From a virus: 64,000 bases of DNA. The stretch spans positions 37,376-101,375 of the IMG/VR virus record IMGVR_UViG_3300032224_001305; one strand, 5' to 3'. Made by a program: the position numbers and the translations under genes. The notes beneath the pieces are model-generated. The model did not search any database, was not told the origin of the DNA, and was given only the letters and a program-made list of their open reading frames with translations. Positions 1-56,550 of the stretch are shown in pieces (the first letter of the stretch is position 1; each line of letters starts with the position of its first letter).

Positions 1-147
1 GACGTGCATTACTCCTATACCAGTTTTTGCTAGCACTTCTGCAACGTGGGAGCCGATAGAACCGACACCAACGACAGTTGTTGTCATACCTGATACCTCT
101 TGAGGGATCAGTGTAGATTGGCGTGTGAAATCTAGCTTGACAGCCAT
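1..147 (-). CDS. ThiF/E1-like adenylating enzyme, N-terminal part (runs off window start; not in ORF track)
   Basis: Manual translation from ATG at 147 gives MAVKLDFTRQSTLIPQEVSGMTTTVVGVGSIGSHVAEVLAKTGIGVMHV, containing the F-x-RQ arginine finger and the GxGxxG nucleotide-binding loop typical of ThiF/MoeB/E1. Overlaps the end of the JAB gene. Confidence 0.88.
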   Translation of the reverse strand, partial: MAVKLDFTRQSTLIPQEVSGMTTTVVGVGSIGSHVAEVLAKTGIGVMHV

Positions 148-1004
148 TTGCGTGTCCAATATCCGATATTATCTCGGATCGTTTCGGGTTTCTTCTCAAC
201 GTTTATAACGGTGCTTTCCGTCTTTACCTGTCTTTCCTCTATTTTTTTAGCCTTTGCCGGCTCCTCTATAAATCTCACCGGAGGCACGTTCCTAGTGCCC
301 TGCCATCCCCACCAGGCAGGAAAGTCATCGTCGTCATCATGTAGTTTAGTCTTTACCGGCAGGTTGGTCTGAACTCCAGCCTGCCACGTTCTAGTGACCG
401 GAGCAGTAAAGGACTGTTTCTGTACGGTGACCACGTTGTGCATACGCTCAACTTTAGCCAGTGACTCTTCTATCCACTTATTAGTAACGGTGCCCTGATA
501 CAACACACCGTACGAGCAGTTGACTACGGTATTTCTGTACACGCTGTTGTTGTTACCGTGGCTGTTGGGATCATACGTATCTAGACGCAAGTACAGATTA
601 TTGCCAGGATCTTTACCAGCTAGCGCGGCTGCAGCACCACTTTTATTAGTGATAATACTCCACATAAAGGCGCCGTTAGCCAGACGATCGATAGTAGCTT
701 CGTCTGTGCCAGAGGGACTAGCTGTCATGTTCACGTGGCTGTGGAAGAACACACGCAGTCTAGAAGTATCAGCGCCCTGATTGATCAACTCTAGCTGCAG
801 CAAAGACAGAGACTGGTCGTCCATCTCAGTGTACACACCAGAGCACTTTTGCTTTGGTACATAAAACTCTTGAACGACATCGTCTCTGCCAGGCAGCAGC
901 AAGCCGAGAGCAGAGATCTCGATATCGCATGCCTCGGTAAGACGCCACATCTGTATCCACGCCTTGGGCGTGAACAGAAGCTTCTTCGTTTGCACTACAC
1001 TCAT
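132..1004 (-). CDS. JAB/MPN+ metallopeptidase (prokaryotic deubiquitinase-like)
   Basis: N-terminal Glu (EISALG) plus HSHVNMTASPSGTD, matching the JAMM motif HxH-x7-S-x2-D. Confidence 0.85.
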   Translation of the reverse strand: MSVVQTKKLLFTPKAWIQMWRLTEACDIEISALGLLLPGRDDVVQEFYVPKQKCSGVYTEMDDQSLSLLQLELINQGADTSRLRVFFHSHVNMTASPSGTDEATIDRLANGAFMWSIITNKSGAAAALAGKDPGNNLYLRLDTYDPNSHGNNNSVYRNTVVNCSYGVLYQGTVTNKWIEESLAKVERMHNVVTVQKQSFTAPVTRTWQAGVQTNLPVKTKLHDDDDDFPAWWGWQGTRNVPPVRFIEEPAKAKKIEERQVKTESTVINVEKKPETIRDNIGYWTRKWLSS

Positions 1005-2035
1005 GATACCGTCCTAGGTACGCAGCCAGAGTTGTTTAGGCCGCTGTTTGTTTCTAGAGATACTAGCGAGAACATATGTAGCTTTGCGCAACAAGTGGGA
1101 CATGAGCCACAATGTGACACTGCCGTTTCCTGAAAGCAGTTAGCGCAGAAAATACTCTCGTGTACATGCTCACAACCCTGAGCGGCCGGAGCTACGCCAA
1201 GATCGTTGCAGTGTGGACACACGATCCTACCCCAAGGACCTTTGGGATCCCTATCTATGAGATTGGTATACGCGCTCGCTGGATTAGCAAACAACAGACA
1301 ACCGCTTAGAAGTGCCAGCGCGTTGGCCACGTTTCCATGTAGTAAAGAGTCTGAGATACGTATAGCCTCGTCACCCGTACACACACTGTTGTTGTAGTTT
1401 ATGTGCGGGTGGTCGCGAAACGTCGTAACAACATCGTTACTATCTTTAGCAGTGACCTGTAGATTAGCGCCGTATCTCTGTACATCCCAGCCAAGTTTTA
1501 CTAGGTACGAACCATACTTTTCGTGCGATTTGAGACCGGTACCTCGCTGAATAATACGGAATACCTTTGTGCGAAACTCTACGTTGATTCTGGGGGGTTC
1601 AGTACCACTCTGAGTAGAGACAGTAACCGTAGGCACATCAACGGTACTGAGTAGCTCTGAGGCGTTGTCATAGTCAAACGTATCGCACAGATCTTTGTAG
1701 CTCTCAAACAGCGCTTTATTTTTAATGATATACTGAATAGCTTTTATAGTGCTTTGGTGACGGTCATTAAGCTCATCAGACTTGCGTTCGGCGTAGTAAA
1801 CTTCGTCAGCAAGTGCTTGTTCCTTTGTTGTGATTAGTCGAAGCTTTTCTTTAAGCTTTTCCTTCTCTTCTTTTATAGCGTCTATAAACGCCTGCTTCTT
1901 CTCTTTAACCTCCTTGAGTTCGGCGTCAGCAGTGTCGACAAGCTTCTTAGTCTGCTCCGCCTCTACCCGTTTTGACTCTATGGTACTGTCATCTACTTTG
2001 AAACAGCCCATCAAACGCGTTTTCAGTTCTGACAT
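1001..2035 (-). CDS. Prokaryotic E2-like conjugating enzyme with N-terminal coiled coil and C-terminal Cys-rich (Zn-binding) region
   Basis: HPHINYNNSVCTG resembles the UBC HPN...C active-site motif; C-terminal CxxC clusters; lies between the Ubl and JAB genes. Confidence 0.7.
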   Translation of the reverse strand: MSELKTRLMGCFKVDDSTIESKRVEAEQTKKLVDTADAELKEVKEKKQAFIDAIKEEKEKLKEKLRLITTKEQALADEVYYAERKSDELNDRHQSTIKAIQYIIKNKALFESYKDLCDTFDYDNASELLSTVDVPTVTVSTQSGTEPPRINVEFRTKVFRIIQRGTGLKSHEKYGSYLVKLGWDVQRYGANLQVTAKDSNDVVTTFRDHPHINYNNSVCTGDEAIRISDSLLHGNVANALALLSGCLLFANPASAYTNLIDRDPKGPWGRIVCPHCNDLGVAPAAQGCEHVHESIFCANCFQETAVSHCGSCPTCCAKLHMFSLVSLETNSGLNNSGCVPRTVS

Positions 2036-2052
2036 TGCTGACCCCTAAAAAC

Positions 2053-2097
2053 GCGAGAGGGCACCACATACTAGATGTATGCAGTGCCCCCTCACGC
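2053..2097 (-). terminator. Hairpin/terminator between Ubl and E2 genes
   Basis: gggcac(2059-2064)...gtgccc(2084-2089) stem, followed on the minus strand by TTTTTAG. Confidence 0.5.
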
Positions 2098-2123
2098 AGC
2101 CATAGACCTACGCCGCTACCAAA

Positions 2124-2534
2124 TTAGCCAGCGTTGACGTTGACCTGCACCATGATGGTGTGATTGCCTGCGGGCACCGGGTCGTTAGCCGACAGCGGGA
2201 CGAGCTGGCTGTCACGAACGTAAGCATAGCTAGCGGTGCTGGTATTCCAGCCAGCCGAAGCCACGATGTCCTTGATAGGCGTACCAGGGACGAAGTTCAC
2301 CGGAACCGCGTCCTTACCCAAGCTACCCTTGAGAAGGACGGTGTTACCGCCCTGAGCCTCAGCCAGCTTCTCGTTGTACGCCGCCTTGGCGCGCGTCATC
2401 TTAGCCGCAGCGGCAGTCAACTCATCCATGTTCTCGGTCGAGAACTCTTCTTCGAATGCCGCCTTGGCATCTTCGTACGCGTTGGTGGCTTCGTCCAGAA
2501 TGCGCTGCAGATCATCAATCGAGAGTGCGCCCAT
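2124..2534 (-). CDS. Ubiquitin-like (beta-grasp) protein with N-terminal helical/coiled-coil domain
   Basis: C-terminal ~70 aa has a ThiS/Ub-like pattern (PGTPIKDIV...LSANDPVPAGNHTIMVQVNVNAG) ending in Gly; operon context. Confidence 0.72.
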   Translation of the reverse strand: MGALSIDDLQRILDEATNAYEDAKAAFEEEFSTENMDELTAAAAKMTRAKAAYNEKLAEAQGGNTVLLKGSLGKDAVPVNFVPGTPIKDIVASAGWNTSTASYAYVRDSQLVPLSANDPVPAGNHTIMVQVNVNAG

Positions 2535-2535
2535 G

Positions 2536-2775
2536 TTATTTCTCCATGAAAAGCCTAACGGCTTTTGTTGTCCTAGCTTTGCTTGTTGTTGCGATAGTTA
2601 CAGATTTGTAAGTCTTTCCGCCGCATTCGGACGTAAGACGTATAGCCCACGGCAATCTTCCGTTGTCGGGTGCTTCTGCGTCTTCTGTCTGCAGATGAGC
2701 TACAAACAAAAGAGTCGTTACATTGCCTGATTGAACCGGTTCTCGGCTGTAAGATACAGTCCAGCCTTGGCTCAT
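2536..2775 (-). CDS. Hypothetical protein (first gene of the Ubl operon)
   Basis: ATG at 2775 with AAGGA RBS, downstream of the promoter motif at 2820-2845; stop abuts the Ubl start. Confidence 0.45.
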   Translation of the reverse strand: MSQGWTVSYSREPVQSGNVTTLLFVAHLQTEDAEAPDNGRLPWAIRLTSECGGKTYKSVTIATTSKARTTKAVRLFMEK

Positions 2776-2849
2776 TGCGTCCTTACTACTAGCTACCACC
2801 CGTAGTAGGTACAAGAGCATATAACATTATTTTTATTTGTTTTGCAGAC

Positions 2850-3053
2850 TTAGTCTACGGCGGTCACATCATCCGCGGCGTCAACGGTGACGGTGACATC
2901 CGTCGCTACCGAGACTTCTCCAGCCAGCGGAGCTGCGTCAGCATCTACAGCGTCTACTACATCGACATCTGCATTACCAGCGTCAACGTCAGCCGTAGAC
3001 TTGCTGCAGCCTGCGAAAACAATTACTAGTGATAAACAAGCTAAAACTTTCAT
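2850..3053 (-). CDS. Small acidic lipoprotein
   Basis: Hydrophobic signal ending in FAGC lipobox; D/V/A-rich tail. Confidence 0.6.
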   Translation of the reverse strand: MKVLACLSLVIVFAGCSKSTADVDAGNADVDVVDAVDADAAPLAGEVSVATDVTVTVDAADDVTAVD

Positions 3054-3071: not shown

Positions 3072-3395
<324 letters not shown>

Positions 3396-4091
3396 TTATA
3401 TTTTCTCCTTGTCTTGAAATATATCTCTGAATACTTTTGTGATGTTGCCTCTACTTACTGGCTCTGGCTGTTTCCTGCCCGTAGCCATTATGGACACATC
3501 TTTCTTTGACACTTTCTTAACTACACCAAATCGGTGCCCACCGATCTTAGAATAGAACTGGACCATATCACCGGCCCTAATAGCGTCAATAGAGACTTCT
3601 TCGTGAAAGAGAGGTGAACTCATATTTTTCTCACACCTCATAACTTTAGCTGCATAATTTTTAGCGCGACGTAACTTTGGACCCGCTCCCTTGGCCGCAG
3701 CAGTTCCAGCGTTGTAACCCATCAGGGTATGTCGGATGGTACATGTGGTATCTTTACCGCATGCTCCCCGCGCAAGTCTATACCACGCATTAGTTTTGCC
3801 TAGTAAAGACGCTGTCCTACTAAGGGCAACCGGGACCTTCTTCAAAGACGCACAGGGTACTTTCTTTGACGGGAGTACTTGAGTAACCCCGCACTCTCCG
3901 CTGGAACCTATTTGACTAGCGTCCCATTTGGACTCTACGTGTGCCACGCATATAAGTCTTTCTACAGGTACGTCAGATTCTTTGGCGGTGTTAACTAGAG
4001 CAGCTTCGTTCTCGCAAATTACTTGTACTTCCTTACTATTCAGTACGCCTGGATTTGCTGAGAGTACTGCGCAAAGTGCTAGATTTATCAA
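3396..4091 (-). CDS. Lytic transglycosylase (SLT family) with signal peptide and C-terminal SH3/KOW-like extension
   Basis: VES catalytic motif, GxxQV, YNAG. Confidence 0.8.
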   Translation of the reverse strand: MINLALCAVLSANPGVLNSKEVQVICENEAALVNTAKESDVPVERLICVAHVESKWDASQIGSSGECGVTQVLPSKKVPCASLKKVPVALSRTASLLGKTNAWYRLARGACGKDTTCTIRHTLMGYNAGTAAAKGAGPKLRRAKNYAAKVMRCEKNMSSPLFHEEVSIDAIRAGDMVQFYSKIGGHRFGVVKKVSKKDVSIMATGRKQPEPVSRGNITKVFRDIFQDKEKI

Positions 4092-4660
4092 GGTGCCTCA
4101 TCTAGTTTAGCCACCTCAGGACTTAACCTAATCCTATCTTTAGTTAGTTGGTCGGATAGATCAGTAAAGTCCAAAGATCGCTTGAGAATCAGCTGCGCCC
4201 AAGATGCAGGTACATCTTCCCCAAAGTAGACTATTGTGCATTCCTTTCCAGCATCTCTTAGAATCTTTTGGGTGTTAGACGCAGCCTCGATGTTTGTTAC
4301 AAGGGCTATCTCGCTGGCATCATTAGCCATAGCGTAAGCCAACATTTCTGGTAAGTAACTATCCTTAGACTCCCTAGTGGGTGAGTATTGTATAACCACA
4401 TAACCGGATTGTTCCAATCTCTTTATAAAATTTTGCTGTGGTTTATTTGCGTCTATGGCTGTTGTAAAACCGATGGCAGACACAGAGTCGGAAGCCTCTC
4501 CATCTAGATCTAGTAAGTATTTTATCTCGCCAAGTAGTTCCTTGTAGTCTATTAGCAAGTCTAAGCGTCTACTGGTGAAGTACAGCTGAGTTAAATCAAA
4601 CAGGATAAATACTTTGTTGCTTTGGGTCATTTTATTACCTATCAATATTATTGAGCGCAT
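4088..4660 (-). CDS. NYN/LabA-like (PIN-fold) protein, degenerate
   Basis: VFILFD..., IDYKELL, LEQSGYVV, IALVT...LRDAGKEC pattern of LabA/DUF88 NYN domains; several acidic catalytic residues appear to be missing. Confidence 0.5.
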   Translation of the reverse strand: MRSIILIGNKMTQSNKVFILFDLTQLYFTSRRLDLLIDYKELLGEIKYLLDLDGEASDSVSAIGFTTAIDANKPQQNFIKRLEQSGYVVIQYSPTRESKDSYLPEMLAYAMANDASEIALVTNIEAASNTQKILRDAGKECTIVYFGEDVPASWAQLILKRSLDFTDLSDQLTKDRIRLSPEVAKLDEAP

Positions 4661-5037: not shown

Positions 5038-5122
5038 TGGTGCGAGAAGCGGGACTTGAACCCGCACGCCAAAAAGCGAAAGATTTTAAGTCTCTTGCGT
5101 CTACCGATTCCGCCATTCTCGC
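5038..5122 (-). tRNA. tRNA-Leu(TAA)
   Basis: Cloverleaf with long variable arm, anticodon loop CT-TAA-AA, encoded CCA. Confidence 0.93.
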
Positions 5123-5148
5123 GAAGCATAACGACTAACCATATACAG

Positions 5149-5221
<73 letters not shown>

Positions 5222-5261
5222 TTAGCTGGTAACGCGTACGCTACCAGAGTTTTATAAAATA

Positions 5262-5858
5262 TCAACACTGCGTAGATAGTTCTGCAAATCTATCGTTGTA
5301 GTAATTCTTTAACGTTCCACGCAAGTAAGGAAAGTCTCCTAAGAGCGCTGGCAAGTGCGTACGTAGTTTCGCCCGATCGTTGAACTTACCGATGTTAGTA
5401 GGATCAACTAAGTACGGCACCTTATTCCTATCAGCGTAGTCTCGTATAGAAGACCTATTAGTGTTTAGCATAGGTCTAAACACTTTTCCGTTTACTACTG
5501 GCGTATAGGAGGGATTACCCTTAAACGCCGTTATTAAATACCACTCTATTGCGTCATCCAATGTGTGTCCAGTAACTACCTGTGCTTCAGACATCTGGTA
5601 ATACTGGCTACGCATATCGTGCCACTCTGCCTCTGTACCATATGGTAGCTTAGTAACACAGAGCGGTAATTCGTGGTCAGAACAGTAGTCTTCCACTAGA
5701 CACCGACTTAGCTTTGAGAAGTCCGACTCACCGTGCTGAAAATGTAGTACAGTTATATCTTTCCTACCCACTCTACAGAAATGGAGTAGCGCCATAGAAT
5801 CTGGACCACCAGAGCATGCAACTACAACGCGCCTATCAATATTAGGGCTGAATAACAT
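5262..5858 (-). CDS. tilS: tRNA(Ile)-lysidine synthetase, minimal PP-loop form
   Basis: SGGPDS PP-loop, GHTLDD, RPML, DPTN...R..LR motifs; lies inside a tRNA cluster that includes tRNA-Ile2(CAT). True start is probably ATG 5858, since the longer ORF overlaps tRNA-Arg. Confidence 0.9.
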   Translation of the reverse strand: MLFSPNIDRRVVVACSGGPDSMALLHFCRVGRKDITVLHFQHGESDFSKLSRCLVEDYCSDHELPLCVTKLPYGTEAEWHDMRSQYYQMSEAQVVTGHTLDDAIEWYLITAFKGNPSYTPVVNGKVFRPMLNTNRSSIRDYADRNKVPYLVDPTNIGKFNDRAKLRTHLPALLGDFPYLRGTLKNYYNDRFAELSTQC

Positions 5859-5877
5859 TTGCACTCCTATAACATAA

Positions 5878-5954
<77 letters not shown>

Positions 5955-5967
5955 ACTGAAAACAATT

Positions 5968-6044
5968 TGGTCGGAGTGAAGGGATTCGAACCCATGACCC
6001 TCTGCTCCCAAAGCAGATGCGCTACCAGACTGCGCTACACTCCG
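5968..6044 (-). tRNA. tRNA-Pro(TGG)
   Basis: tctgc-tt-TGG-ga-gcaga, CCA end. Confidence 0.95.
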
Positions 6045-6190
6045 AAAGGCTCCTGCACAATTAAGCATCGTGCTAACGCGTGGAGTACACGACGATCTTA
6101 CTTCTGTCGCTGGACTAGGCCATACGGCGCCCGATGGGGGACGAGAGAAGAGATAGATCGCGACCCGGAGGTGAACACCCCATCTCCAGG

Positions 6191-6273
6191 TGGAAGGTGG
6201 TAGATTCGAACTACCGTAGGCTGACGCCGGCAGATTTACAGTCTGCTCCAATTGGCCACTCTGGCAACCTTCC
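6191..6273 (-). tRNA. tRNA-Tyr(GTA)
   Basis: gcaga-ct-GTA-aa-tctgc, long variable arm. Confidence 0.92.
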
Positions 6274-6306
6274 ATTGGGGTGCGCTCGCAGGATGATCCT
6301 AGACCG

Positions 6307-6870
6307 CTAACTTAACTGCTGATCTACGCAATGCTCGACAGACATAAAGTCCGTATGTGCTTTGCATCTAGGCTCGTACCCTTCTTTACCTCCGACCTTA
6401 ACTTCTTCCTGCTTCTCCACCAAAGTAATTGTGTAGTAGGCGTCGTTTCCGCAGAAGCAAACCGCGGGACAAAGCTCAATCTTTGTTGCCCACGGCAGTA
6501 TCTTTGCCATCTCTGGAAAGGCGCTACCTTCTGACGAGAGCTGCAAGGAGGAGACGTATATTTGCTTTCCTTGTTTGTATAACTCAACCAGAACGTCTGA
6601 CACCCCCGGTATCATAAAGGCTTCGTCAACCGCTATTACCTCTGCTTTACCTAGATGGTCAAAGATCTCTCTACCCTCGCTGATAGGAATAGACTCCCAG
6701 CGGTTTCCGTTATGAGAAACAACAGCCTTCGTTGCATACCTAGTATCAATGCTCGGCTTGAACAGTTTAATTACCTTCTTCTGGTATTTTGCTCTTTCCA
6801 GCTGCGAAAGCATTCTTGACGTTTTACCGCCGAACATTGGGCCGGTGAAGACTACAAACTCTTGTTTCAT
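6307..6870 (-). CDS. tdk: Thymidine kinase
   Basis: GPMFGGKT P-loop, FKPSIDTRY, VDEA, VGGKEGYEPRC. Confidence 0.93.
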   Translation of the reverse strand: MKQEFVVFTGPMFGGKTSRMLSQLERAKYQKKVIKLFKPSIDTRYATKAVVSHNGNRWESIPISEGREIFDHLGKAEVIAVDEAFMIPGVSDVLVELYKQGKQIYVSSLQLSSEGSAFPEMAKILPWATKIELCPAVCFCGNDAYYTITLVEKQEEVKVGGKEGYEPRCKAHTDFMSVEHCVDQQLS

Positions 6871-6889
6871 TTTTATACTCTAGTTGTAG

Positions 6890-6962
6890 TGCGCTCGGAG
6901 GGAATCGAACCCTCGACCAACAGATTAAAAGTCTGCTGCTCTACCGACTGAGCTACAAGCGC
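6890..6962 (-). tRNA. tRNA-Lys(TTT)
   Basis: gcaga-ct-TTT-aa-tctgt anticodon arm. Confidence 0.93.
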
Positions 6963-7109
6963 AGCCGCTATTTATTCTTAAGATACATCCCGATTAAATC
7001 TATTATGATTGATACACCGAAGCCAAACGCGGCTCCCCATACAAATCCCTCTATACCAGAAGCGCTAGCTAGATAATCCAAGCTACCTCCTACTAGATTA
7101 GTATCACTG

Positions 7110-7184
7110 TGGAGCGGGCGATGGGATTCGAACCCACGACGTTCAGCTTGGAAGGCTGACACTCTACCGCTGAGTTACACCCGC
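7110..7184 (-). tRNA. tRNA-Gly(TCC)
   Basis: tcagc-ct-TCC-aa-gctga, CCA end. Confidence 0.95.
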
Positions 7185-7200
7185 GTCCCCATTATAGATG

Positions 7201-7289
7201 TGGCGGAGGGAGAGGGATTCGAACCCCCGGACGCTTTTAACGTCGACGGTTTTCAAGACCGCTCCATTAAACCACTCTGGCATCCCTCC
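7201..7289 (-). tRNA. tRNA-Ser(TGA)
   Basis: gcggt-ct-TGA-aa-accgt, long variable arm, CCA end. Confidence 0.94.
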
Positions 7290-7345
7290 GGCTAGTACCG
7301 CCCGTGAGGACGGCACCGTTACACCTTGTACACGTGGTACATGTG

Positions 7346-7726
7346 CTATTTCTGAAACTGCTCAGGATCGTCCGCATCGGTGTCTACCTGTAGCATAGAC
7401 GCGACCAACTGACATATTTTCATTTTAGTGTAGTGGGTTTGGTTAGACAACGGACACTTACTCAAGAAGTAGCTTGTGTGTAGAAAGCCTGATGCAGGTG
7501 CTTCGAACACGTAAGATTCTCCTAACGTTCGTCCTAAGACGTAAACCGAGTTATCGTCCGGAGCAATACACGCTATGGCCTTGTATCTAGTTCCGTCGCC
7601 TGGTTGCCATTCCACCACAACCACGTTTTCTTTAATGCAAACTTTATTCGTTCCCGGCCTGCTATATGGACTGTACGCAGCATCTAACCTGCTACTCACG
7701 TTGTCGGCATATGTCGAATCAAACAT
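7346..7726 (-). CDS. Hypothetical protein
   Basis: GAGG RBS, 126 aa; contains WQPGDGTRY. Confidence 0.6.
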   Translation of the reverse strand: MFDSTYADNVSSRLDAAYSPYSRPGTNKVCIKENVVVVEWQPGDGTRYKAIACIAPDDNSVYVLGRTLGESYVFEAPASGFLHTSYFLSKCPLSNQTHYTKMKICQLVASMLQVDTDADDPEQFQK

Positions 7727-7741
7727 GGCTACCTCAAATAA

Positions 7742-8008
7742 TTAGGTCCAATCTCTAACCACTAGAAATACACCAGTGGCTACCGTGTAACCGACGCCCT
7801 CCATTAGAGCTATCTTTACTCGATCTTGTGCACTACGTGCTTCTACTATCAATATCGTAGGAACCATAGCTATAAGCGGGTAAGTAAAGCTAATGGCCAA
7901 TCCAAGGGTGTACACCTTGTTATTGGCCGCGTACGCTGCTACGTCGAACCACATCTGCAGTAGGAACGCAGCTAAAAAAGCGGCAACGTATTTAGCTTTA
8001 TTACTCAT
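7742..8008 (-). CDS. Small membrane protein (about 3 TM segments)
   Basis: Hydrophobic segments; start moved to ATG 8008 to avoid overlapping tRNA-Ala. Confidence 0.6.
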   Translation of the reverse strand: MSNKAKYVAAFLAAFLLQMWFDVAAYAANNKVYTLGLAISFTYPLIAMVPTILIVEARSAQDRVKIALMEGVGYTVATGVFLVVRDWT

Positions 8009-8029
8009 ATTAAATTCCTGGTTATTTGG

Positions 8030-8105
8030 TGGTGGACTCAAGGGGGATCGAACCCCTGACCCTCGGCTTGCAAAGCCGATGCTCTCCCAGCTGAGCTATG
8101 AGCCC
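8030..8105 (-). tRNA. tRNA-Ala(TGC)
   Basis: tcggc-tt-TGC-aa-gccga, G3-U70 pair, CCA end. Confidence 0.95.
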
Positions 8106-8200
8106 TTGGTAAAAAGCGCGTGATAGCCAATATCATGGCGATATACAGAGACACTCGCTCTGCATATCGGCCACTCGGCGTGGACTTTGACTATACGCGC

Positions 8201-8275
8201 TGGTGGATGCTGAGGGATTCGAACCCCCGACTGCCTCCGTGTAAAGGAGGAACTCTACCGCTGAGTTAAGCATCC
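8201..8275 (-). tRNA. tRNA-Val(TAC)
   Basis: cctcc-tt-TAC-ac-ggagg, CCA end. Confidence 0.95.
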
Positions 8276-8279
8276 TTAA

Positions 8280-8399
8280 GGAAAGTACCTGAGCGCCTTT
8301 ATAGGTAGCGCTTTCCTGCTGCAACAGGCATGCGTTTTACCAGTGAGCACTTGCAGGTGCTTACTCGATCTGTCGCATCTTTCTAAATCAGGTACTCCC
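8280..8399 (-). ncRNA. Putative multi-branched structured RNA between tRNA-Ile2 and tRNA-Val
   Basis: agtacctga/tcaggtact closing stem with three internal hairpins. Confidence 0.4.
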
Positions 8400-8401
8400 G
8401 G

Positions 8402-8475
8402 TGGGCCCTCTGGGATTTGAACCCAGTACCCGCAGTTTATGAGACTGCTGCTCTAACCGATTGAGCTAAGGGCCC
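8402..8475 (-). tRNA. tRNA-Ile2(CAT), lysidine-modified, reads AUA (elongator Met is less likely)
   Basis: GGGCCCTTAGCTCA 5' end resembling ileX-type tRNAs; ct-CAT-aa loop; no initiator GGG/CCC anticodon stem; tilS nearby. Confidence 0.8.
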
Positions 8476-8492
8476 GTTCACCTAACTGACAG

Positions 8493-8574
8493 TGCGTGTA
8501 GAGGGACTCGAACCCCCACGTCTCTCAACAACAGAACCTAAATCTGCCGCGTCTACCAATTCCGCCATACACGC
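8493..8574 (-). tRNA. tRNA-Leu(TAG)
   Basis: gcaga-tt-TAG-gt-tctgt, GGCGGAATTGGTAGACGC Leu D-arm. Confidence 0.92.
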
Positions 8575-8598
8575 CTAATGAACTCTACGCAGTATTCA

Positions 8599-8653
8599 TA
8601 TATCAAAGAACAACGCGCTTTTTGCACGCAAATACAAAGTCGATCTTGGTATA
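8599..8653. promoter_or_regulatory. Back-to-back phage promoters (GCAAA-N15/16-GRTATA) driving the tRNA cluster (-) and the 8695 operon (+)
   Basis: Minus strand: GCAAA at 8625, GATATA at 8604. Plus strand: GCAAA at 8628, GGTATA at 8648. Confidence 0.65.
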
Positions 8654-8694
8654 GGAGCTGTGCTGCACAAGCACCAAGCAGCTAGGAGGTATAC

Positions 8695-9291
8695 ATGCAG
8701 TTCGACTTGACGTCAATACAACCCAATGATCCGCTCAAGGACTTCTTATCTGCTGTGATGAGAATCGATAAAGCCAGTATCAATATGCACATGCAGAATC
8801 TGGCAGAGTTCGATATCGAAATTACTGTCAACGGGCGCTCGATAATGCCGGATGTGCTAATCAAGACGATGCTGGCGGCTAAAGACAGAGAGATTGCGAG
8901 TCTTCGTGAAAAGCTAACGCAGGAGTCAGTTAGTCGACTTCTACGGTCTAGCGCTTCTACTGGGCAAGTCTCTGCGCCAGTAAGCGCAGAACCTGAAGTA
9001 GTGCAAGCACCTGCTACACAGGCACAACCGGAGACACCTACAGTAAACTATGACGCTGACGTAACCGTTAGTCGAGATCTGGTCGTCTTCAAGAAAGAGG
9101 CCTTTAAGAAGTTCTACGAGTCTACGCAGCAGGGCGTAGAGTCTCTGTCGGATCTACTACTACAGCACATCAATCATACGCAGAGACGTAAGGGTGTAAT
9201 ACCCAGCGAGACGCTCGTGCGTCTGCTGACAGTAGAAAGTAAATTTGGTGTTGTCTCTAAGATGATGGAGCGTGTACGAAATGACTTTTGA
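8695..9291 (+). CDS. Hypothetical protein
   Basis: AGGAGG RBS, 198 aa. Confidence 0.75.
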   Translation: MQFDLTSIQPNDPLKDFLSAVMRIDKASINMHMQNLAEFDIEITVNGRSIMPDVLIKTMLAAKDREIASLREKLTQESVSRLLRSSASTGQVSAPVSAEPEVVQAPATQAQPETPTVNYDADVTVSRDLVVFKKEAFKKFYESTQQGVESLSDLLLQHINHTQRRKGVIPSETLVRLLTVESKFGVVSKMMERVRNDF

Positions 9292-9577
9292 ACCACCGCA
9301 GTTTGGCTTGCCTCCGCATGTGGTAAGTCACATACTGGTAAACCCGTCTCGCTGGACAAAGAAAGGCGACTTGCTGAAGAAGCAACTTCGCAAGTTGACC
9401 ACTAATGAAACAGCCATAAATAATTTTCTGACTCGGCACTCTGTCGGAAGTAGCAAGGTCTACTTCCCGATAGCTGCTAACCACGCGCCTAGGCTAGATA
9501 CAGCTAAGTACCCCACTAGGAATCACTACGAGGATGTAGTACCAGGCAGTGTCTACGCCTTGGTAGTTATTCCCTAG
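9281..9577 (+). CDS. Hypothetical protein
   Basis: Overlaps previous stop; followed by hairpin + T-run + TTAGCTA. Confidence 0.6.
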   Translation: MTFEPPQFGLPPHVVSHILVNPSRWTKKGDLLKKQLRKLTTNETAINNFLTRHSVGSSKVYFPIAANHAPRLDTAKYPTRNHYEDVVPGSVYALVVIP

Positions 9578-9692
9578 AAATAAAAGACGGCGCGATGATC
9601 TACCAAGGTCATCTCGTCGTTTTTTAGCTATTGACAGTCGTAGAGGCTACGTGGTAAACCGCTGCTGTATTGATGTGTATACAGTAAACTAG

Positions 9693-9941
9693 GTGAAACC
9701 AGTGGCAAGTTCGGCACAACTGACAATTTGGCAACACCGTGATTTGTGCTCAGTACGTCGTCATGACGAGCTGAACGGACTAGGTCCGTATCAACTTTTT
9801 ACTACTGATGACGTATGCAGATATTTAGATTGCGCCAACTATGATGGCTGCCTAACCTTTGCGGCGGCAAACAAATGGGGGTCCTTTTCTTGTAAAGGAT
9901 GCAGGAAGGCCCTACACGGAGAATTTGTAACAGAGGAGTAA
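9693..9941 (+). CDS. Small Cys-rich (Zn-binding) protein
   Basis: CxxxxC...CxxC residues. Confidence 0.5.
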   Translation: MKPVASSAQLTIWQHRDLCSVRRHDELNGLGPYQLFTTDDVCRYLDCANYDGCLTFAAANKWGSFSCKGCRKALHGEFVTEE

Positions 9942-47186: not shown

Positions 47187-49055
47187 ATGTCTAAGAGAAA
47201 TATCGTGTTAGTTCTGTCTCTTCTGCTGTATAGTTGCGGCGATGACTTAGGTTGGTCCAACCAGCCTACCGATACCACCATAGACTGTGATACCACACAC
47301 GAGGAAGATACCGATGAGGATACTCTTCAAGGCATTGATACCGGTATTGACGATATTAACAGCGCTGACATTTGGAGCAGCGACAATAGCGATGCTGACG
47401 ACGCTGAAGGTACTGAAATCCTTGTCAGCGTAGACAGTGCTGATGACGTAGAAGCCCCGACAGACGCAACTTCTATAGAAGACTCTACGTCAGAAGAAGA
47501 TACAGTTATTTCTGACGTAGGAGATATAGTTTCCATACCGGCAGAATGTACTGTCTCATCAGACTGCGCCAATGACCAACCCTGCGCATACGCTTGGTGT
47601 GATGACGGTAAGTGCAAGAAAGATTTAACACTTCTAGATAGCACGCCGTGTCAACTAGACGGCTCTGTTTGTACAATAGATAAGTGTTTAGATGGCAAAT
47701 GCCTAAGCGCTGGTAGTTTATTTTGTGAAGATAACAATCCCTGCACAGATAACCTATGCGATGCGGAGAAGGGGTGTGAGGCTTGGGCTAATATTGGTGC
47801 GTGTGATGATGGCTCAACTTGTACCGGCTTAGACGTATGCTCAGGAGGTTCTTGCCAACCTGGTCCAACAATAGACTGTGATGACGCTAATCCATGTACA
47901 TCTGATAGCTGCTCTGAAGATTTTGGATGTATTCATGATAATAACTCTGCGCCATGCAACGACGGAGTAGAGTGTACGTTGGACGACGCCTGCTCTAATG
48001 GCATGTGCTTGCCCGGAGATCCGACATCTTGCGAGGACCAGAATCCATGCACTGATGACACATGTGACATCTTGTCTGGATGCGTTAACGAGCCCAACGA
48101 TGTCACATGTACCGACCAGAACGCTTGTACAGAACAAGACAAGTGCGAGCTGGCTATGTGCCTAGGAGTGTCCGTAGTCTGCGAGGACGGAAACGCCTGT
48201 ACGTCAGATCTATGTGACACCGTAGTAGGCTGTGTAAGTCTGCCTATTGCAGCGACATGCACAGACAACTCATCCTGTACCGAAGGGGACAACTGCGAGC
48301 AAGGTATATGCACCAGTATTCCGATCATATGTAATGACCAAAACGAATGTACGGCAGATACTTGTGATATATCCGCAGGCTGTACATACAATGCTCAGCC
48401 CAACGGTACTAAATGCGGAGGCGGTACGTGCGCCAACGGCGTATGTACTTGTCTAACAGGGTTCGGTTGCGCTGCTCCTAAGTTTATTTACAACGGAGAT
48501 GTGACAGCAGGTATGCTTGGAGGAATGGGCGGAGTCGTAGGTCCTAAGATGGGCTGCGCTACCACAGACGTACTTATAGGCATAGGGTTTGATTTCAGTA
48601 ACAACACTAAGACCGCCACCAGAACAACTGTAGTTTGTGGCACTGTCACGGCAGACCAGACTGGGAACGTAACCACAACCCAAACCACTACTCAGAAAAA
48701 CGGTGGCTCTGGATGTTCAGGATGGGAGCCGACGGCACCTACTCCAATAACGAAATGCCCTAACGGCTGGGTTATCGTAGGTATAACTGGTAATAAACCT
48801 GGTTCTACTTTGTTCAATAGCGTGAGCATAGTGTGCTCACAGCTTAGTGTTGGAGGCGTGCCCGTTGGTACAGAGCAGACAATTGCTGTGCCTGGTATGC
48901 CTGGAACTGGAACTCCTCAAAGTGTTAAGTGTCCCGTAGGCACTATAGCTAGATACTTCGAGACACGCGCTGGATGTGGACAAGACGCCCTAACTCTTTA
49001 TTGCGCCAAAGCTAATCCTGACTGCACAGGCCAGCCTCTCATATGTAAGGACTAA
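47187..49055 (+). CDS. Lipoprotein with acidic linker, tandem Cys-rich CxDxNxCTxDxC repeats and a C-terminal beta-prism/lectin-like domain
   Basis: LYSC lipobox; repeated CEDNNPCTDNLC-type units; three C-terminal repeats of CPxGxVxxG type. Confidence 0.75.
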   Translation: MSKRNIVLVLSLLLYSCGDDLGWSNQPTDTTIDCDTTHEEDTDEDTLQGIDTGIDDINSADIWSSDNSDADDAEGTEILVSVDSADDVEAPTDATSIEDSTSEEDTVISDVGDIVSIPAECTVSSDCANDQPCAYAWCDDGKCKKDLTLLDSTPCQLDGSVCTIDKCLDGKCLSAGSLFCEDNNPCTDNLCDAEKGCEAWANIGACDDGSTCTGLDVCSGGSCQPGPTIDCDDANPCTSDSCSEDFGCIHDNNSAPCNDGVECTLDDACSNGMCLPGDPTSCEDQNPCTDDTCDILSGCVNEPNDVTCTDQNACTEQDKCELAMCLGVSVVCEDGNACTSDLCDTVVGCVSLPIAATCTDNSSCTEGDNCEQGICTSIPIICNDQNECTADTCDISAGCTYNAQPNGTKCGGGTCANGVCTCLTGFGCAAPKFIYNGDVTAGMLGGMGGVVGPKMGCATTDVLIGIGFDFSNNTKTATRTTVVCGTVTADQTGNVTTTQTTTQKNGGSGCSGWEPTAPTPITKCPNGWVIVGITGNKPGSTLFNSVSIVCSQLSVGGVPVGTEQTIAVPGMPGTGTPQSVKCPVGTIARYFETRAGCGQDALTLYCAKANPDCTGQPLICKD

Positions 49056-52478: not shown

Positions 52479-52718
52479 ATGAGCACCTGGGTAGTCTACC
52501 TGCTTAAGAACGACAGCAACCGTACCTACGTAGGTTGTACTACAGACGTAGACCGAAGATTGCGTCAGCATAACGGTGAGCTATCCGGAGGGGCGAAGTA
52601 CACTAAGCGTGGTAGACCCTGGACACTAGTGAAAGTGGCCGGGGCTTATCCAAATCGCTCTGAGGCGCAGAAAGCAGAATATGCTGCCAAACGGAATCGG
52701 GAGTTCAGATATGCCTAA
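52479..52718 (+). CDS. GIY-YIG nuclease (SLX1-like)
   Basis: VYLL...TYVGCT.D..RRLRQHNG...GGAKYT..GRPW...E. Confidence 0.88.
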   Translation: MSTWVVYLLKNDSNRTYVGCTTDVDRRLRQHNGELSGGAKYTKRGRPWTLVKVAGAYPNRSEAQKAEYAAKRNREFRYA

Positions 52719-54051
52719 GAAACAACCTGCTCCTGGTATTCCAGACCGTAGAGTAATAAAGGAAATAAAAGAGCCTGCTGGTAACTGGAAGTACGTATTC
52801 CAGAAGCACGAGGCGTTCAGGGCGGGACCGCATTTCGATATCAGATTGGCCCCGTCTGACGTGTCACACTCTTGGGCTACTCGTAGAATACCGGAGCCCG
52901 GAAAGGCTACTTTGGCCAAGCAGCAGCCTACTCACGCAGTGTCTTGGCATGACTTCGAAGGTGACATACCTAGAGGTCTTTATGGTGGCGGCAAAGTCTC
53001 CACTCATGCCAAAGGTACAGCTGATGTAGTAGAGGTCAGCAAAGACAAGGTGCTCTTTAATATCCACGAAGGACGCACTACCAAAGAAATGGTATTGCTC
53101 AGACCTAGGGCAGCTAGACCTAAGGATTGGTTATTTCTAAATAGAAGCACCGTCCCCGGTAAATACCAGATACCGCACGAGAAGCCCAAATATAAGAGCC
53201 TGCCGTATACGTTTTCATTGAGCGATACCGAAGGGCCACTCCAGCCAAAAGTAGATGGAGCGCACTCGCTACTGTTACTAGAAGGCGGTAAGCGTCCACG
53301 GGTATTCTCGTATCGAGAATCCAAGCGCGGCGATGCTCTAGAGTACACCCACAAGATACCGGGGCTTTTCTCGCAAAGAGTTCCTGCTGGTGTACCTAGA
53401 ACAGTTCTTCGCGCAGAGACTTACTTATCTGATCCGAAAGGAAAGGCCCAACCAGCCTTTAGAACAGCAGGCATCCTGAACTCAAACGTGGACAAGGCAC
53501 GCGCCGCGCAGACTAGAGATAAGTTGCGCGTGATGCCATTTGACGTTGTAGGACAAGAAAACAAGCCCTACGCTACTAGACTAGCACTCATAAAGAAGTA
53601 TACCGCAGGACTCAATGCTGTACACGAACCTCCTACAGCAATAGAAGCCGACGAAAAGCGTAAACTATTACTGGCAATAAAGAGCCGCAAGCATCCACTT
53701 ACGGCAGAAGGAATTGTCCACTGGTCACCAACAGGACCACAGAAAGCCAAGATAGTAGATGAAGCCGACGTCTACATCAGAGGCGTTCAGCCGGGACAAG
53801 GTAAATATAAAGATAGTGCTGGCGTGTTTACCTACTCCAGTACGCCACGTGGTCCGATCCTAGGTAAAGTAGGAACTGGCATATCAGATAGACTACGTAA
53901 GGACATGTGGAAGAACCGCTCATCCTATGTAGGCTCGGTAGCCAGAGTGGGTTATGAAAAGAAGTCTACTAAGGGAACGTTATTTGCCCCTAGATTGGTA
54001 GATATTCACGTAGATAAAAGCTTGCGCGGAGTTAAGGCACAGAAGCGTTGA
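52711..54051 (+). CDS. ATP-dependent DNA ligase fused to a LigD-type 3'-phosphoesterase domain
   Basis: QKH.A.RAG.HFD.RL...SWA...H (PE domain); QPKVDG adenylation motif, FDV, EGIV, KAK, OB-fold KVGTG. Confidence 0.82.
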   Translation: MPKKQPAPGIPDRRVIKEIKEPAGNWKYVFQKHEAFRAGPHFDIRLAPSDVSHSWATRRIPEPGKATLAKQQPTHAVSWHDFEGDIPRGLYGGGKVSTHAKGTADVVEVSKDKVLFNIHEGRTTKEMVLLRPRAARPKDWLFLNRSTVPGKYQIPHEKPKYKSLPYTFSLSDTEGPLQPKVDGAHSLLLLEGGKRPRVFSYRESKRGDALEYTHKIPGLFSQRVPAGVPRTVLRAETYLSDPKGKAQPAFRTAGILNSNVDKARAAQTRDKLRVMPFDVVGQENKPYATRLALIKKYTAGLNAVHEPPTAIEADEKRKLLLAIKSRKHPLTAEGIVHWSPTGPQKAKIVDEADVYIRGVQPGQGKYKDSAGVFTYSSTPRGPILGKVGTGISDRLRKDMWKNRSSYVGSVARVGYEKKSTKGTLFAPRLVDIHVDKSLRGVKAQKR

Positions 54052-54340: not shown

Positions 54341-55225
54341 TTAGACGGGCAGTTGCTTCAACGTTACTTGCCGCAACACTTCGCTTTTGATGATTGGCTG
54401 AACCAGTAGCAGAACTGTTTTATTGGGCAGTTCATTAATATCAGCCGCCAGTTCTATAGTTGCCGCAAGGTCGCTAGCTTCAGTGGAACCACGTAGTAGG
54501 GACGTATCGAAACTTGGCACCAGCTTGTAAGTGTCAGTTCCAACTACCTGCTGAAAGAGTAGATATGGCGTCTTGGTAGGCTTGTCTACTACAGGAGCCG
54601 GTGCTGGAACTGGGACGGGAACAGGAGCCGCCACTACTTGCGGTTCCTCTGTCTCTTCTAGTTCCTCTGAAATATCTTGCTGTTGCGTCTCCAGTGCCTT
54701 CTTCCTAGGGTAGGGCTCTGGCAGCGATCTGAACAAGTTCTGGTCGTTCGTAAGCGCCTCCACAGCGTTGTCCAGACTACGCTTGTCGTACATTATTTTG
54801 TTGGATACTTGTCGACTGATAACAAGACTAGAACGCAGAATCGTCAGACACTTGTGGTAAGGAAACCCAAGGTACTTAATCGCATCTGCCTGACTCAAGT
54901 CAGTCGGAGCGTTTAGAGCGACTTCATCAGATTTATTAACGTCAATACCTGCGATACGCATAGCGTTCATTTTCGAGCCGAAAGCTAGAATGACCAGAGG
55001 AACTCCGCTTTTCTTAGCCAGCTCCGCAGCGAACTTAGACAGCTGATGTGACTGGTAGACCACCATGCTGGCTACCTTGTCATACGTCCCTTTCTTGGGC
55101 GGAAATGGAATACGCGACCTATACCGCACGTGTCCAACAATCTCGAACCCGAACTCCTCACCGTAACTTGCCAGTTCGTCTTTATGCTTGTCGGAACCGC
55201 CGACAAGAAACACTCTAATTGGCAT
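54341..55225 (-). CDS. Candidate retron partner: DUF2325-like N-terminal domain + excisionase/MerR-type HTH + C-terminal domain
   Basis: ATG 55225 with GGAGG RBS overlaps the RT stop; VFLVGG...SH......AKKSGVP; LSQADAIKYLG.......R...I...V....YD..SLD. Confidence 0.55.
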   Translation of the reverse strand: MPIRVFLVGGSDKHKDELASYGEEFGFEIVGHVRYRSRIPFPPKKGTYDKVASMVVYQSHQLSKFAAELAKKSGVPLVILAFGSKMNAMRIAGIDVNKSDEVALNAPTDLSQADAIKYLGFPYHKCLTILRSSLVISRQVSNKIMYDKRSLDNAVEALTNDQNLFRSLPEPYPRKKALETQQQDISEELEETEEPQVVAAPVPVPVPAPAPVVDKPTKTPYLLFQQVVGTDTYKLVPSFDTSLLRGSTEASDLAATIELAADINELPNKTVLLLVQPIIKSEVLRQVTLKQLPV

Positions 55226-56525
55226 TATCACCCTCCACATAAAATCGCAGGAATAGTTTGTTTTTAGTTGCTCTATCAATAATTACACCACTGGGCCGTA
55301 AGAAACTCCGCGTAATTCTGTCAATCTCCACTTTTATCTCTTTTAGAGCAGACATATCGCGCACCTGACTCAGCTCAGAGTCCGTGAGCACGCGTTTGAT
55401 TCCAAGCCGCCTAAGTTGGCTGACTAGGCGTCGGCTATTTCTGTTGTGCATCACAGTGTCTAGCAATACCAGACCGGCCTCGGTCAATATAGCCAGAGTT
55501 ACTGCTGATGACCGCCAACCGTATTCTATAGTAGTGTTGCCGACAGTCAGACGTCTGTTCCAGTTATCGTTACATACGATGCACACACGCGGATCTATTG
55601 CCCAATTCAGTAGCGCTTTTCCTCCTTTACCTAGGAGTAATCTGGAGGGTTTTCCGTAGTTTACGTGTGCCGCTGCCAGAACAATCTCCGGAGCTACTTG
55701 TATACTAAAGTTGCTTCCGACTACTTCATGGATGCTTACTTGCTTAGGAGGTGGAGTTACCACCGGTATTCCGAACTCTATGCAAATGCGGGACAGGTTA
55801 GTGTCTGCATCCGGCGGAACCTTTAGTTTCTGCCACTCCTCAAGACCTTTGGTGGAACTCTCGTTACCCTGATGCTTGGCTGCGCGAAGCTTTCTCTTGG
55901 ACTCTCTGGTAGGGTATACCGCGTCAGAGCCCACACTCACGCCGGTAACTTTTCTATAGCCCGCCGACGCTTTGTACAAAGTGGTCTTATGCGCGGCTAG
56001 CTCAAAGCCACTTTCGATAACTTTATCACGCACTAGTTCTTTTATGCGTTCTACCAATGACCCGTCATCAAACGAAATGGTCAGGTCGTCTGCGTAACGG
56101 GTGTAGACGATTTCTGTAGAAATAAGACGCAGGCCCACAGACAAACCTGCGTCTAGCTTGATGGCCGCAATGTTTGCGATAGCAGGGCTGGTGGGAAGTC
56201 CCTGTCTAGCTACATTGTCTACAAAACATTTGTCGTAATAACTTTCGGCAAATCTATCGCACACCGCCGTGACTTTACTGCGCGTGACGGTATCGAAAAA
56301 GTCCTTTAGGTCAAAGCACAACGTGAACTGCTTACCGATGTGTGCCTTGGCGTTTGTAACCGCCGATCTAAGAGGCATGAAGCCGTGTACGGTGTTATTG
56401 CACAACGAATACTGAAGTTTGTTCAGTTCTGGTAGTAACACCTTTAGATCTTTCTTCTCAGCTTCGGTAGGCACGCATACGTGCCGGTAACTTCCGTTTC
56501 TCTTTGGGATTGCGACTATTCTCAT
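55215..56525 (-). CDS. Retron-type reverse transcriptase with ~190-aa C-terminal extension
   Basis: IPKRNG..R, HGF...S.V.NAKAH (region X), DLKDFF, QG.PTSP..AN, YTRYADD, VTG (region Y). ATG 56525 is the likely start; GTG 56534 is an alternative. Confidence 0.92.
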   Translation of the reverse strand: MRIVAIPKRNGSYRHVCVPTEAEKKDLKVLLPELNKLQYSLCNNTVHGFMPLRSAVTNAKAHIGKQFTLCFDLKDFFDTVTRSKVTAVCDRFAESYYDKCFVDNVARQGLPTSPAIANIAAIKLDAGLSVGLRLISTEIVYTRYADDLTISFDDGSLVERIKELVRDKVIESGFELAAHKTTLYKASAGYRKVTGVSVGSDAVYPTRESKRKLRAAKHQGNESSTKGLEEWQKLKVPPDADTNLSRICIEFGIPVVTPPPKQVSIHEVVGSNFSIQVAPEIVLAAAHVNYGKPSRLLLGKGGKALLNWAIDPRVCIVCNDNWNRRLTVGNTTIEYGWRSSAVTLAILTEAGLVLLDTVMHNRNSRRLVSQLRRLGIKRVLTDSELSQVRDMSALKEIKVEIDRITRSFLRPSGVIIDRATKNKLFLRFYVEGDNAN

Positions 56526-56550
56526 GGTAGGCACCTAAGAAGAAAAGGGA

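Follow-up and report, generated by a model that had tools for sequence, protein, structure and literature searches.

A phage contig carries a Ubl-E2-JAB-E1 operon that probably encodes a ubiquitin-like conjugation cascade

Organisation of the operon

The window analysed here is a 64,000-nucleotide stretch of DNA, bases 37376-101375 of a 101,375-bp IMG/VR virus contig with a CheckV completeness of 56%. Four genes lie at its left end, all on the minus strand. They specify, in order, a ubiquitin-like protein (Ubl), an E2-like protein, a JAMM metallopeptidase (JAB) and an E1 enzyme. This operon is the subject of the present analysis.

The Ubl gene (2124..2534, minus strand) encodes 136 residues. 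On the same strand it is followed by the E2-like gene (1001..2035; 344 residues), the JAMM/JAB metallopeptidase gene (132..1004; 290 residues) and the 5' end of the E1 gene (1..159). The E2 stop and the JAB start share the sequence ATGA, and the E1 start overlaps the 3' end of the JAB gene by 16-28 nt. E1 can start at ATG 147 or TTG 159. The rest of the gene lies to the left of the window and was completed from the parent contig (L002:14482-15159, minus strand), which gives a protein of 221 residues from ATG 147 or 225 residues from TTG 159. ATG 147 is preferred because of the lengths of the homologues and the N-terminus of the orthologue in locus L007. The closest homologues have 218-228 residues at 98% coverage, and all 28 of 28 close homologues have 167-228; the L007 protein starts MTLDFVRQ and the window protein MAVKLDFTRQ.

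The gap between the Ubl and E2 genes contains a hairpin that resembles an intrinsic terminator (2052..2096, minus strand). It has a 21-bp stem and a 5-nt loop and is followed by UUUUU. Its energy is -39.5 kcal/mol (z = -6.5), and none of 200 shuffled sequences was as stable. Since this hairpin follows Ubl and the E2, JAB and E1 genes overlap, Ubl is predicted to be transcribed abundantly and the enzymes to be expressed at a lower level and in a coupled manner; the phage would make much Ubl and little, stoichiometric E2, JAB and E1. An earlier note on this DNA, made from the sequence alone, had claimed four co-oriented genes, a terminator-like hairpin after the first and an E1 start at 147 that the open reading frame track had missed. 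The gene arrangement and the hairpin are confirmed, and ATG 147 is the start that best fits the homologues.

A possible small open reading frame (2536..2820, minus strand) stops 1 nt ahead of the Ubl start. It has 94 codons, or about 78 from an internal ATG with an AAGGA Shine-Dalgarno sequence, and matches no family of Pfam, NCBIfam or PHROGs. If it is a gene at all, it may be a fifth member of the operon.

By its gene content, the operon comes from a large tailed phage, and PHROGs contains few relatives of it. Three genes on the contig point to this: one for the large terminase (phrog_675, E 1e-49), one for a head maturation protease (4e-11) and one with a weak match to a major head protein. 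The window adds 12 tRNA genes and genes for a B12-type ribonucleotide reductase, a ligase, a reverse transcriptase and a protein with an endolysin domain.

The ubiquitin-like protein

The Ubl ends in NVNAG, with Gly136 directly before the stop codon. No family library (Pfam, NCBIfam, PADLOC, PHROGs) recognises the sequence. A search of 5.8 billion clusters found four close homologues besides the record of the window itself, and the NVNAG end is present in all four. An AlphaFold2 model built from the close homologues and three short distant relatives has a predicted local distance difference test score (pLDDT) of 80. It contains helices at residues 6-29 and 33-61, a beta-beta-alpha-beta-beta-beta domain at 65-131 and a flexible tail. 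The protein thus has an acidic hairpin of helices at residues 6-61, followed by a beta-grasp domain at 63-133.

The best Foldseek match of this model is the ubiquitin of Caldiarchaeum (E 2e-4; 6fno, 6fnn, 6fj7); TtuB, SUMO, NEDD8 and ubiquitin are also matched. VIA-align places residues 64-136 on residues 1-76 of ubiquitin (Z 8.8, root-mean-square deviation (rmsd) 1.9 A). The Ubl also aligns with bacterial multi-ubiquitin proteins at Z 9.2 (9d5b) and 8.7, with 19% identity, and with TtuB at Z 8.7. These matches support a beta-grasp fold in the model, with the C-terminal glycine co-terminal with G76 of ubiquitin. The fold alone cannot tell a protein modifier from a sulfur carrier.

The E2-like protein

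The second protein carries the motif HPHINYNNSVC, or HPH-x7-C. Its AlphaFold model (pLDDT 78.9) consists of a long helix, an alpha/beta domain and a Cys-rich tail. The N-terminal region (residues 1-120; 1676..2035, minus strand) has a single helix at 16-105, which is a coiled-coil candidate; for residues 12-113, a VIA search with the whole model returned coiled coils only. The UBC-like core (residues 125-270; 1226..1663, minus strand) holds HPH at 209-211, the candidate catalytic Cys219 (nt 1381-1379) and NP at 251-252. The Cys/His-rich tail (residues 271-344; 1004..1225, minus strand) may form a RING-like zinc domain.

Few proteins belong to this family: among 1.84 billion protein cluster representatives, an exhaustive HMMER search found 20 sequences. 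In an alignment of 19 sequences H209, P210, H211, C219, N251, C273, C297 and C300 are invariant. The local sequence reads HPHI-x6-C-x-GD, followed some 30 residues later by YNP-x-S-x-Y; this resembles the HPN...Cys...NP signature of classical E2s. In the window protein His stands in place of the Asn of the HPN-type motif, and the canonical HPN occurs in one paralogue from locus L008.

When the whole E2 model is compared with the PDB by Foldseek, nearly all of the top 50 matches are E2s or ubiquitin E2 variants (UEVs), with E-values of 0.05-0.4 and probabilities of up to 0.96. The weak E-values are explained by the long helix, which dilutes the score. With residues ~125-270, VIA-align gives Z 5.1-6.3 over 105-122 aligned residues at rmsd 3.7-5 A (UBE2L6, UbcH7, UBE2S, UbcH5). 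The VIA search with the whole model was swamped by long-helix coiled coils and is uninformative on core or tail. One family member reaches 17.3 bits against Pfam UQ_con (cut-off 27 bits; E 0.004) over the HPN-Cys region. Foldseek, VIA-align, motif conservation and this sub-threshold UQ_con match together are the reason for accepting a UBC fold for the modelled core, with Cys219 as the candidate catalytic residue.

In the tail, the spacing is C273-x2-C276-x11-C288-x-H290-x6-C297-x2-C300-x8-C309-x2-C312, followed by C315, C316, H320 and C338. Ten Cys and one His are invariant among the six closest family members. The first eight ligands fit the RING consensus, except that the gap between ligands 4 and 5 is six residues instead of two or three. 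Profile matches are weak (TRIM21 RING, E 0.006; zf_RING-like and zf-AN1 in single members). A RING-like, E3-like domain is plausible from this pattern.

The JAMM peptidase and the E1 enzyme

The catalytic domain of the JAB protein covers residues ~1-180. It has Glu29 and H88-S-H90-x7-S98-x2-D101 (nt 743-702); the motif stretch HSHVNMTASPSGTD corresponds to H-x-H-x7-S-x2-D. E29, H88, S89, H90, S98 and D101 are conserved in a 13-sequence alignment. The L008 orthologue scores 28.8 bits, which is over the Pfam Prok-JAB cut-off, and the JAB profile aligns the motif with that of Pyrococcus JAMM1 (5lda, E 0.01), a SAMP2 isopeptidase. The domain is followed by a low-complexity C-terminal extension of 110 residues with a conserved GYW-x-R-x-WL at its end.

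E1 matches Pfam ThiF over residues 25-219 at 63.9 bits (cut-off 28.1 bits; 1.6e-17) and phrog_15670 at 2e-17. It is a single domain and has neither a rhodanese domain nor a CxxC zinc site. G31, G33 and G36 (GxGxxG), D55, D57, K78, D116 and R121 are invariant in the family alignment, and R141 is also kept. An invariant Cys178 lies in EPCTA, right after a variable crossover-type loop. The solved proteins closest to it in sequence are MccB, PaaA, TcdA, UBA5, UBA3 and Cap2, in each case for the Rossmann part only. A predicted complex of E1 with the beta-grasp domain of the Ubl scored 0.30 against a mark of 0.32, a value that speaks neither for nor against an interaction.

The protein assignments of the earlier note hold in each case. 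Gene 2124-2534, described there as Gly-terminated and beta-grasp-like with an N-terminal helical domain, is predicted to have a beta-grasp fold that superposes on ubiquitin. Gene 1001-2035, described as an HPH-x7-C E2-like protein with a coiled coil and Cys-rich tail, is predicted to have a UBC-like core with mostly E2/UEV matches, a helix that could form a coiled coil, and the ten invariant tail cysteines. The third gene, called a JAMM peptidase, has the complete E29 and H-x-H-x7-S-x2-D zinc site.

A candidate conjugation cascade

The operon probably encodes a self-contained ubiquitin-like protein-conjugation cascade of the phage, as motifs and structural models indicate. Its most likely function would be the reversible conjugation of the Ubl to proteins during infection. 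Folds, motifs, gene order, conservation and phage origin were established here; the chemical steps, which follow the chemistry of the families, and the E3-like role are inferred. The small E1, probably a homodimer in the style of ThiF and MoeB, would use ATP to adenylate Gly136 of the Ubl. The Ubl would then move as a thioester to Cys219 of the E2, possibly via the invariant Cys178 of E1, and the E2 would hand it to amino groups of target proteins. Since a separate E3 gene is absent, the putative zinc-binding, RING-like tail and the N-terminal coiled coil of the E2 may do the work of an E3 or adaptor within the same protein. The JAMM peptidase would take conjugates apart or edit them; in relatives with a Gly-Ala end it would also expose the glycine.

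A number of points weigh against this interpretation. Firstly, the Ubl ends in a single glycine (Ala-Gly) and not in Gly-Gly. Secondly, E1 has no separate catalytic-cysteine domain, and in every family member the usual NLxRQ ATP motif lacks its Arg (NIANQ here), so that the chemistry of E1 may differ. Thirdly, the structural match of the E2 core is only middling (Z 5-6.3, rmsd ~4 A), although the match list is uniform; Pfam UQ_con does not match the window E2 and the one family member that it does pick up lies below the cut-off. Finally, the window JAB scores 22.5 bits against Pfam Prok-JAB, just under the 25-bit cut-off, and the RING-like view of the E2 tail is based on spacing and weak matches.

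It is scarcely probable that the Ubl is instead a sulfur carrier of the ThiS/MoaD/TtuB type, thiocarboxylated for tRNA thiolation or cofactor synthesis and processed or recycled by the JAB. Peptidases with such a role are known from Thermus TtuB and archaeal SAMP systems, and the Ubl has TtuB among its best fold matches; the Ubls of relatives match ThiS weakly. E1 is a minimal, ThiF/MoeB-like single domain whose best NCBIfam matches are ThiF models, far below cut-off, but the rhodanese domain and CxxC zinc motifs are lacking. At a distance of 3-6 kb there are twelve tRNA genes and a PP-loop ATPase; the PP-loop protein scores 93.4 bits against the TilS N-domain model (cut-off 93.6) and 28.8 bits against TtuA, and Cys clusters are absent. 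Rhodanese, IscS-type cysteine desulfurase, MoaE and ThiG profiles found nothing on the 101-kb contig, which is 56% complete, so that absence from the whole phage is unproven. The genes downstream of E1, which were retrieved from the contig, include none for thiamine, molybdenum cofactor or thio-tRNA synthesis. Sulfur transfer has no use for an E2, yet here one with an invariant Cys of catalytic type is translationally coupled with JAB and E1. The earlier note had seen no sulfur-transfer or cofactor genes and had argued from the E2 for protein conjugation; both statements are supported by these data.

Assuming protein conjugation, the leading guess is that phage or host proteins are tagged during infection for takeover, for regulation of the phage's own proteins or for counter-defence. 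This guess is based on the position of the operon next to replication and partition genes (ParB, helix-turn-helix (HTH), AAA+ and RecA-like proteins).

Related loci

The closest homologues of Ubl, JAB and E1 are found on a 158-kb sister contig and on 8.4-kb contigs. In three to four studies, freshwater and drinking-water metagenomes contain short, near-identical contigs at low depth, which shows no more than that the phage or close kin are present there at low levels. Scanning metagenomes with the JAB alignment gave 13 loci. E2, JAB and E1 occur in this order in four independent metagenomic loci (L005, L007, L008 and L009). In the nine others JAB and E1 alone are adjacent, after a protein of 480-890 residues that was not recognised.

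The phage-like contigs L008 and L009 have three E2 paralogues each (L008:7662-9940; L009:3607-4398 and 7481-9867), all with HPH or HPN followed by Cys. This suggests several target-specific E2s that share one E1, JAB and Ubl. Small neighbouring proteins of 76-78 residues in both loci are ThiS/ubiquitin-like beta-grasp proteins by sequence and end in EGA or QGA; in L015 a ThiS/ubiquitin-type protein ending in KGA follows E1. In Ubls of the L008/L009 type the glycine is therefore followed by one further residue, whereas it is already terminal in the window subfamily. This extra residue gives the JAB of those relatives an obvious role in maturation. In L007 (705-3014) a stretch of about 0.9 kb with another open reading frame splits the JAB frame in two (705-977 and 1860-3014); this stretch could be an intein, intron or mobile insertion.

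E1 homologues are also found in cultured phages, where they are annotated as 'thiamine biosynthesis protein'. In Flavobacterium phage FpV4 the genes run gp52, gp51 (a weak JAB match) and gp50 (the E1 homologue); in crAss001 they run gp78, gp77 ('metalloprotease') and gp76 (the E1 homologue). Both E1 regions adjoin primase, uracil-DNA glycosylase and exonuclease genes. With their pairs of an E1 homologue and a metalloprotease-like gene (gp76-gp77 and gp50-gp51), crAss001 and FpV4 are laboratory phages in which the biology could be studied.

Xanthomonas jumbo phages also have an E1 homologue. Upstream of it, Xanthomonas phage PhiXhv-12 encodes a 140-residue protein ending in ASGG (L003:1706-2128) and an 892-residue protein containing HPH-x13-C (L003:2208-4886). 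From their sequences these two could be partners of the Ubl and E2-like kind. Profile comparison by hhalign of the E2 family with the 892-residue protein, FpV4 gp52 and crAss001 gp78 did not support such a relationship, and the Ubl and E2 profiles found nothing in the genomes of FpV4, crAss001 and PhiXhv-12.

Further searches for the E2 returned little. The E2 model matches uncharacterised phage proteins of 370-590 residues in BFVD (E 4e-4 to 0.02). As distant E2 relatives these model-based matches are suggestive only, and none is tied to JAB-E1 neighbours. A tblastn search of 50,697 cultured-phage records with the E2 gave no match. Pattern scans of IMG/VR for the E2 and the JAB alignment found no relatives beyond, presumably, the window's own record, and scans of GTDB genomes for an E2 subset and the JAB alignment found none; one or two short peptide patterns were used in each case, so absence is not shown.

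The loci with JAB and E1 alone bear on two alternatives. In the first, which is very unlikely, the JAB-E1 pair adenylates a peptide C-terminus or a small molecule, as MccB and PaaA do; the E2-like protein would then serve as a scaffold without catalytic activity, and the beta-grasp protein as substrate or chaperone. Many loci do pair JAB-E1 with a 480-890-residue protein and no recognisable Ubl or E2, and the canonical ATP-motif Arg is missing from E1. MccB and PaaA are its best solved-structure matches (E ~6e-7 and 4e-6), but they span only residues 14-86 of a generic nucleotide-binding fold. The HPH, Cys and Asn of the E2 are invariant in the subfamily, which is unexpected in a scaffold, and a free C-terminal glycine on a flexible tail, as in the Ubl, is the classic form of an E1 substrate.

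The second alternative, a role mainly in counter-defence and not in productive tagging, is unlikely. Here the JAB would strip Ubl or CD-NTase conjugates made by host Bil or type II CBASS systems, and the phage Ubl and E2 would serve as decoys or competitive sinks for the E1/E2 enzymes of the host. Host immunity by Bil and type II CBASS does need E1/E2 conjugation and JAB trimming (PMC11601596). The terminator suggests that Ubl is made in excess, and the JAB-E1 core recurs in the nine further loci and, as an E1 homologue beside a weak-JAB or metalloprotease gene, in FpV4 and crAss001. For this purpose a deconjugase alone would be enough, yet the catalytic residues of E1, E2 and JAB are all conserved and the genes are translationally coupled; in addition, the phage Ubl, E2 and JAB have no detectable similarity to PADLOC defence models. 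Both alternatives fit the conserved catalytic residues less well than a conjugation cascade does.

Neighbouring genes

Downstream of E1, the contig encodes two unknown proteins, two HTH proteins, ParB, an AAA+ ATPase and a RecA-like protein. The two unknown proteins (231 and 337 residues) have no match in Pfam, NCBIfam, PHROGs, PADLOC or the protein atlas; of the two, the 337-residue gene alone has a syntenic homologue in L007. The AAA+ ATPase (L002:8537-10150, minus strand) is CDC48/PAN/FtsH-like and belongs to phrog_8638 (4.5e-136). Its gene lies 4 kb downstream of E1 and overlaps that of the RecA/KaiC-like protein (L002:7713-8540, minus strand); the pair occupies 30.1-32.5 kb of the contig. 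Since the AAA+ family also occurs in many phages which lack the Ubl operon, its link with the operon is not specific.

A bolder proposal, which appears doubtful, takes the operon as the clearest member of a widespread and unrecognised class of phage Ubl systems. E2, RING-like E3 and coiled-coil adaptor would be joined in one polypeptide that tags host or phage replication proteins, possibly feeding them to the CDC48/PAN-like AAA+ ATPase. If true, this would be a minimal viral ubiquitin-unfoldase pathway in bacteria.

On the other side, a 107-residue protein consisting almost entirely of Asp and Glu (3072-3395, minus strand) is encoded directly upstream of the operon. The DNA from there towards the tRNA genes (3396-4660, minus strand) encodes two proteins with sub-threshold matches, one to an SLT-like lytic transglycosylase N-domain (Pfam E 0.002) and one to an NYN domain (E 7e-4). 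The twelve tRNA genes occupy 5038-8574 (minus strand), and ten of the twelve have U34 anticodons. Within this block, a 198-residue protein which comprises only the N-terminal PP-loop domain of TilS (5262-5858, minus strand) adjoins a tRNA with a CAU anticodon.

Elsewhere in the window, a 622-residue protein (47187-49055, plus strand) has four Cys-rich CTDC repeats of Dictyostelium type (Pfam 3.5e-14), which are unusual in a phage. A LigD 3'-phosphoesterase domain and a DNA ligase OB domain are combined in one protein (52681-54051, plus strand). The phage reverse transcriptase gene (Pfam RVT_1, 6.6e-25) lies at 55215-56534 (minus strand).

Comparison with known systems

Bacterial Ubl conjugation has so far been known as a weapon of the host against phages (Bil, type II CBASS and probably Bub), while eukaryotic viruses encode E2s, E3s and ubiquitins of their own. 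A complete cascade in a lytic-type phage would mean that the other side uses the same chemistry, as eukaryotic viruses do. The compact design, with a 221-residue E1 and an E2 with a RING-like tail, would also make the operon an attractive minimal system for transfer from E1 to E2 to target with neither a Cys domain nor a separate E3. No description of a phage-encoded Ubl-E2-JAB-E1 cascade was found in the literature, including a jumbo-phage survey; coverage was incomplete and novelty is unproven.

Bil operons have the same four functions in the same order (Ubl, E2, JAB, E1) and likewise no separate E3 gene; the Bil E2 has been proposed to choose targets itself (PMC11601596). The E1 architecture that defines BilD is absent from the phage, whose E1 is one adenylation domain of 221-225 residues. 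In contrast to Bil, the phage E2 carries a 100-residue helix and a Cys-rich tail, the Ubl is one beta-grasp behind a helical hairpin, and the operon is located on a tailed-phage contig and not on a bacterial chromosome. PADLOC models do not match the phage Ubl, E2 or JAB.

The ubiquitin of Caldiarchaeum subterraneum, the best Foldseek match of the phage Ubl, is encoded in an operon for ubiquitin, E1, E2, a small RING finger and Rpn11. This operon shares with that of the phage a JAMM peptidase and an E2 that has Cys and a motif of HPN type; its RING protein has a gene of its own, while in the phage the candidate RING-like pattern is fused to the E2 (PMC5654768).

With type II CBASS the phage operon has in common a JAB partner peptidase (Cap3) and the Rossmann region of E1, which matches many PADLOC 'E1-E2' (Cap2) models (E 1e-8 to 8e-15) and Cap2 structures. 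Unlike in CBASS, E2 and E1 are not fused; they are separate genes with JAB between them, and a dedicated Ubl replaces the C-terminus of the CD-NTase. No CD-NTase or effector genes are present among the operon neighbours scanned.

PRTRC systems (class 6d of Iyer 2006), which also include a helical protein, share a small stand-alone ThiF-type E1 (~225-245 residues), a JAB, a Ubl, an E2-like protein and ParB, and a ParB gene lies a few kb from the phage operon. Scores against the PRTRC models of NCBIfam lie far below the cut-offs for ThiF (44.2 bits against 144.75) and ParB (52.8 against 278.6), and the PRTRC A, B, C, E and F models do not match. Class 6d E2-like proteins lack the classical His (PMC1779556), whereas the phage E2 has HPH.

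Bub (6E/DUF6527) operons are bacterial Ubl-E1-E2 operons whose Ubls have varied N-terminal domains; the multi-ubiquitin protein 9d5b gives the Z 9.2 fit to the phage Ubl. Bub forms Ser/Tyr oxyesters with no catalytic Cys, and has gene fusions and a DUF6527 protease (PMC11601596). In the phage, by contrast, Cys219 of the E2 is invariant and the genes are separate, and no operon or flanking protein matches DUF6527.

Lambda and T1 encode TAPI (a Ubl) and TAPK (JAB-NlpC/P60), so that a phage beta-grasp protein with a C-terminal Gly stands beside a JAB peptidase there as well (PMC1779556). That pair belongs to a tail module with neither E1 nor E2; the present operon has both and lies among replication and partition genes. 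The operon is thus a variant of the prokaryotic Ubl-E1-E2-JAB operon, distinguished by its location in a phage, its minimal E1 and its E2 with a candidate coiled coil and RING-like tail.

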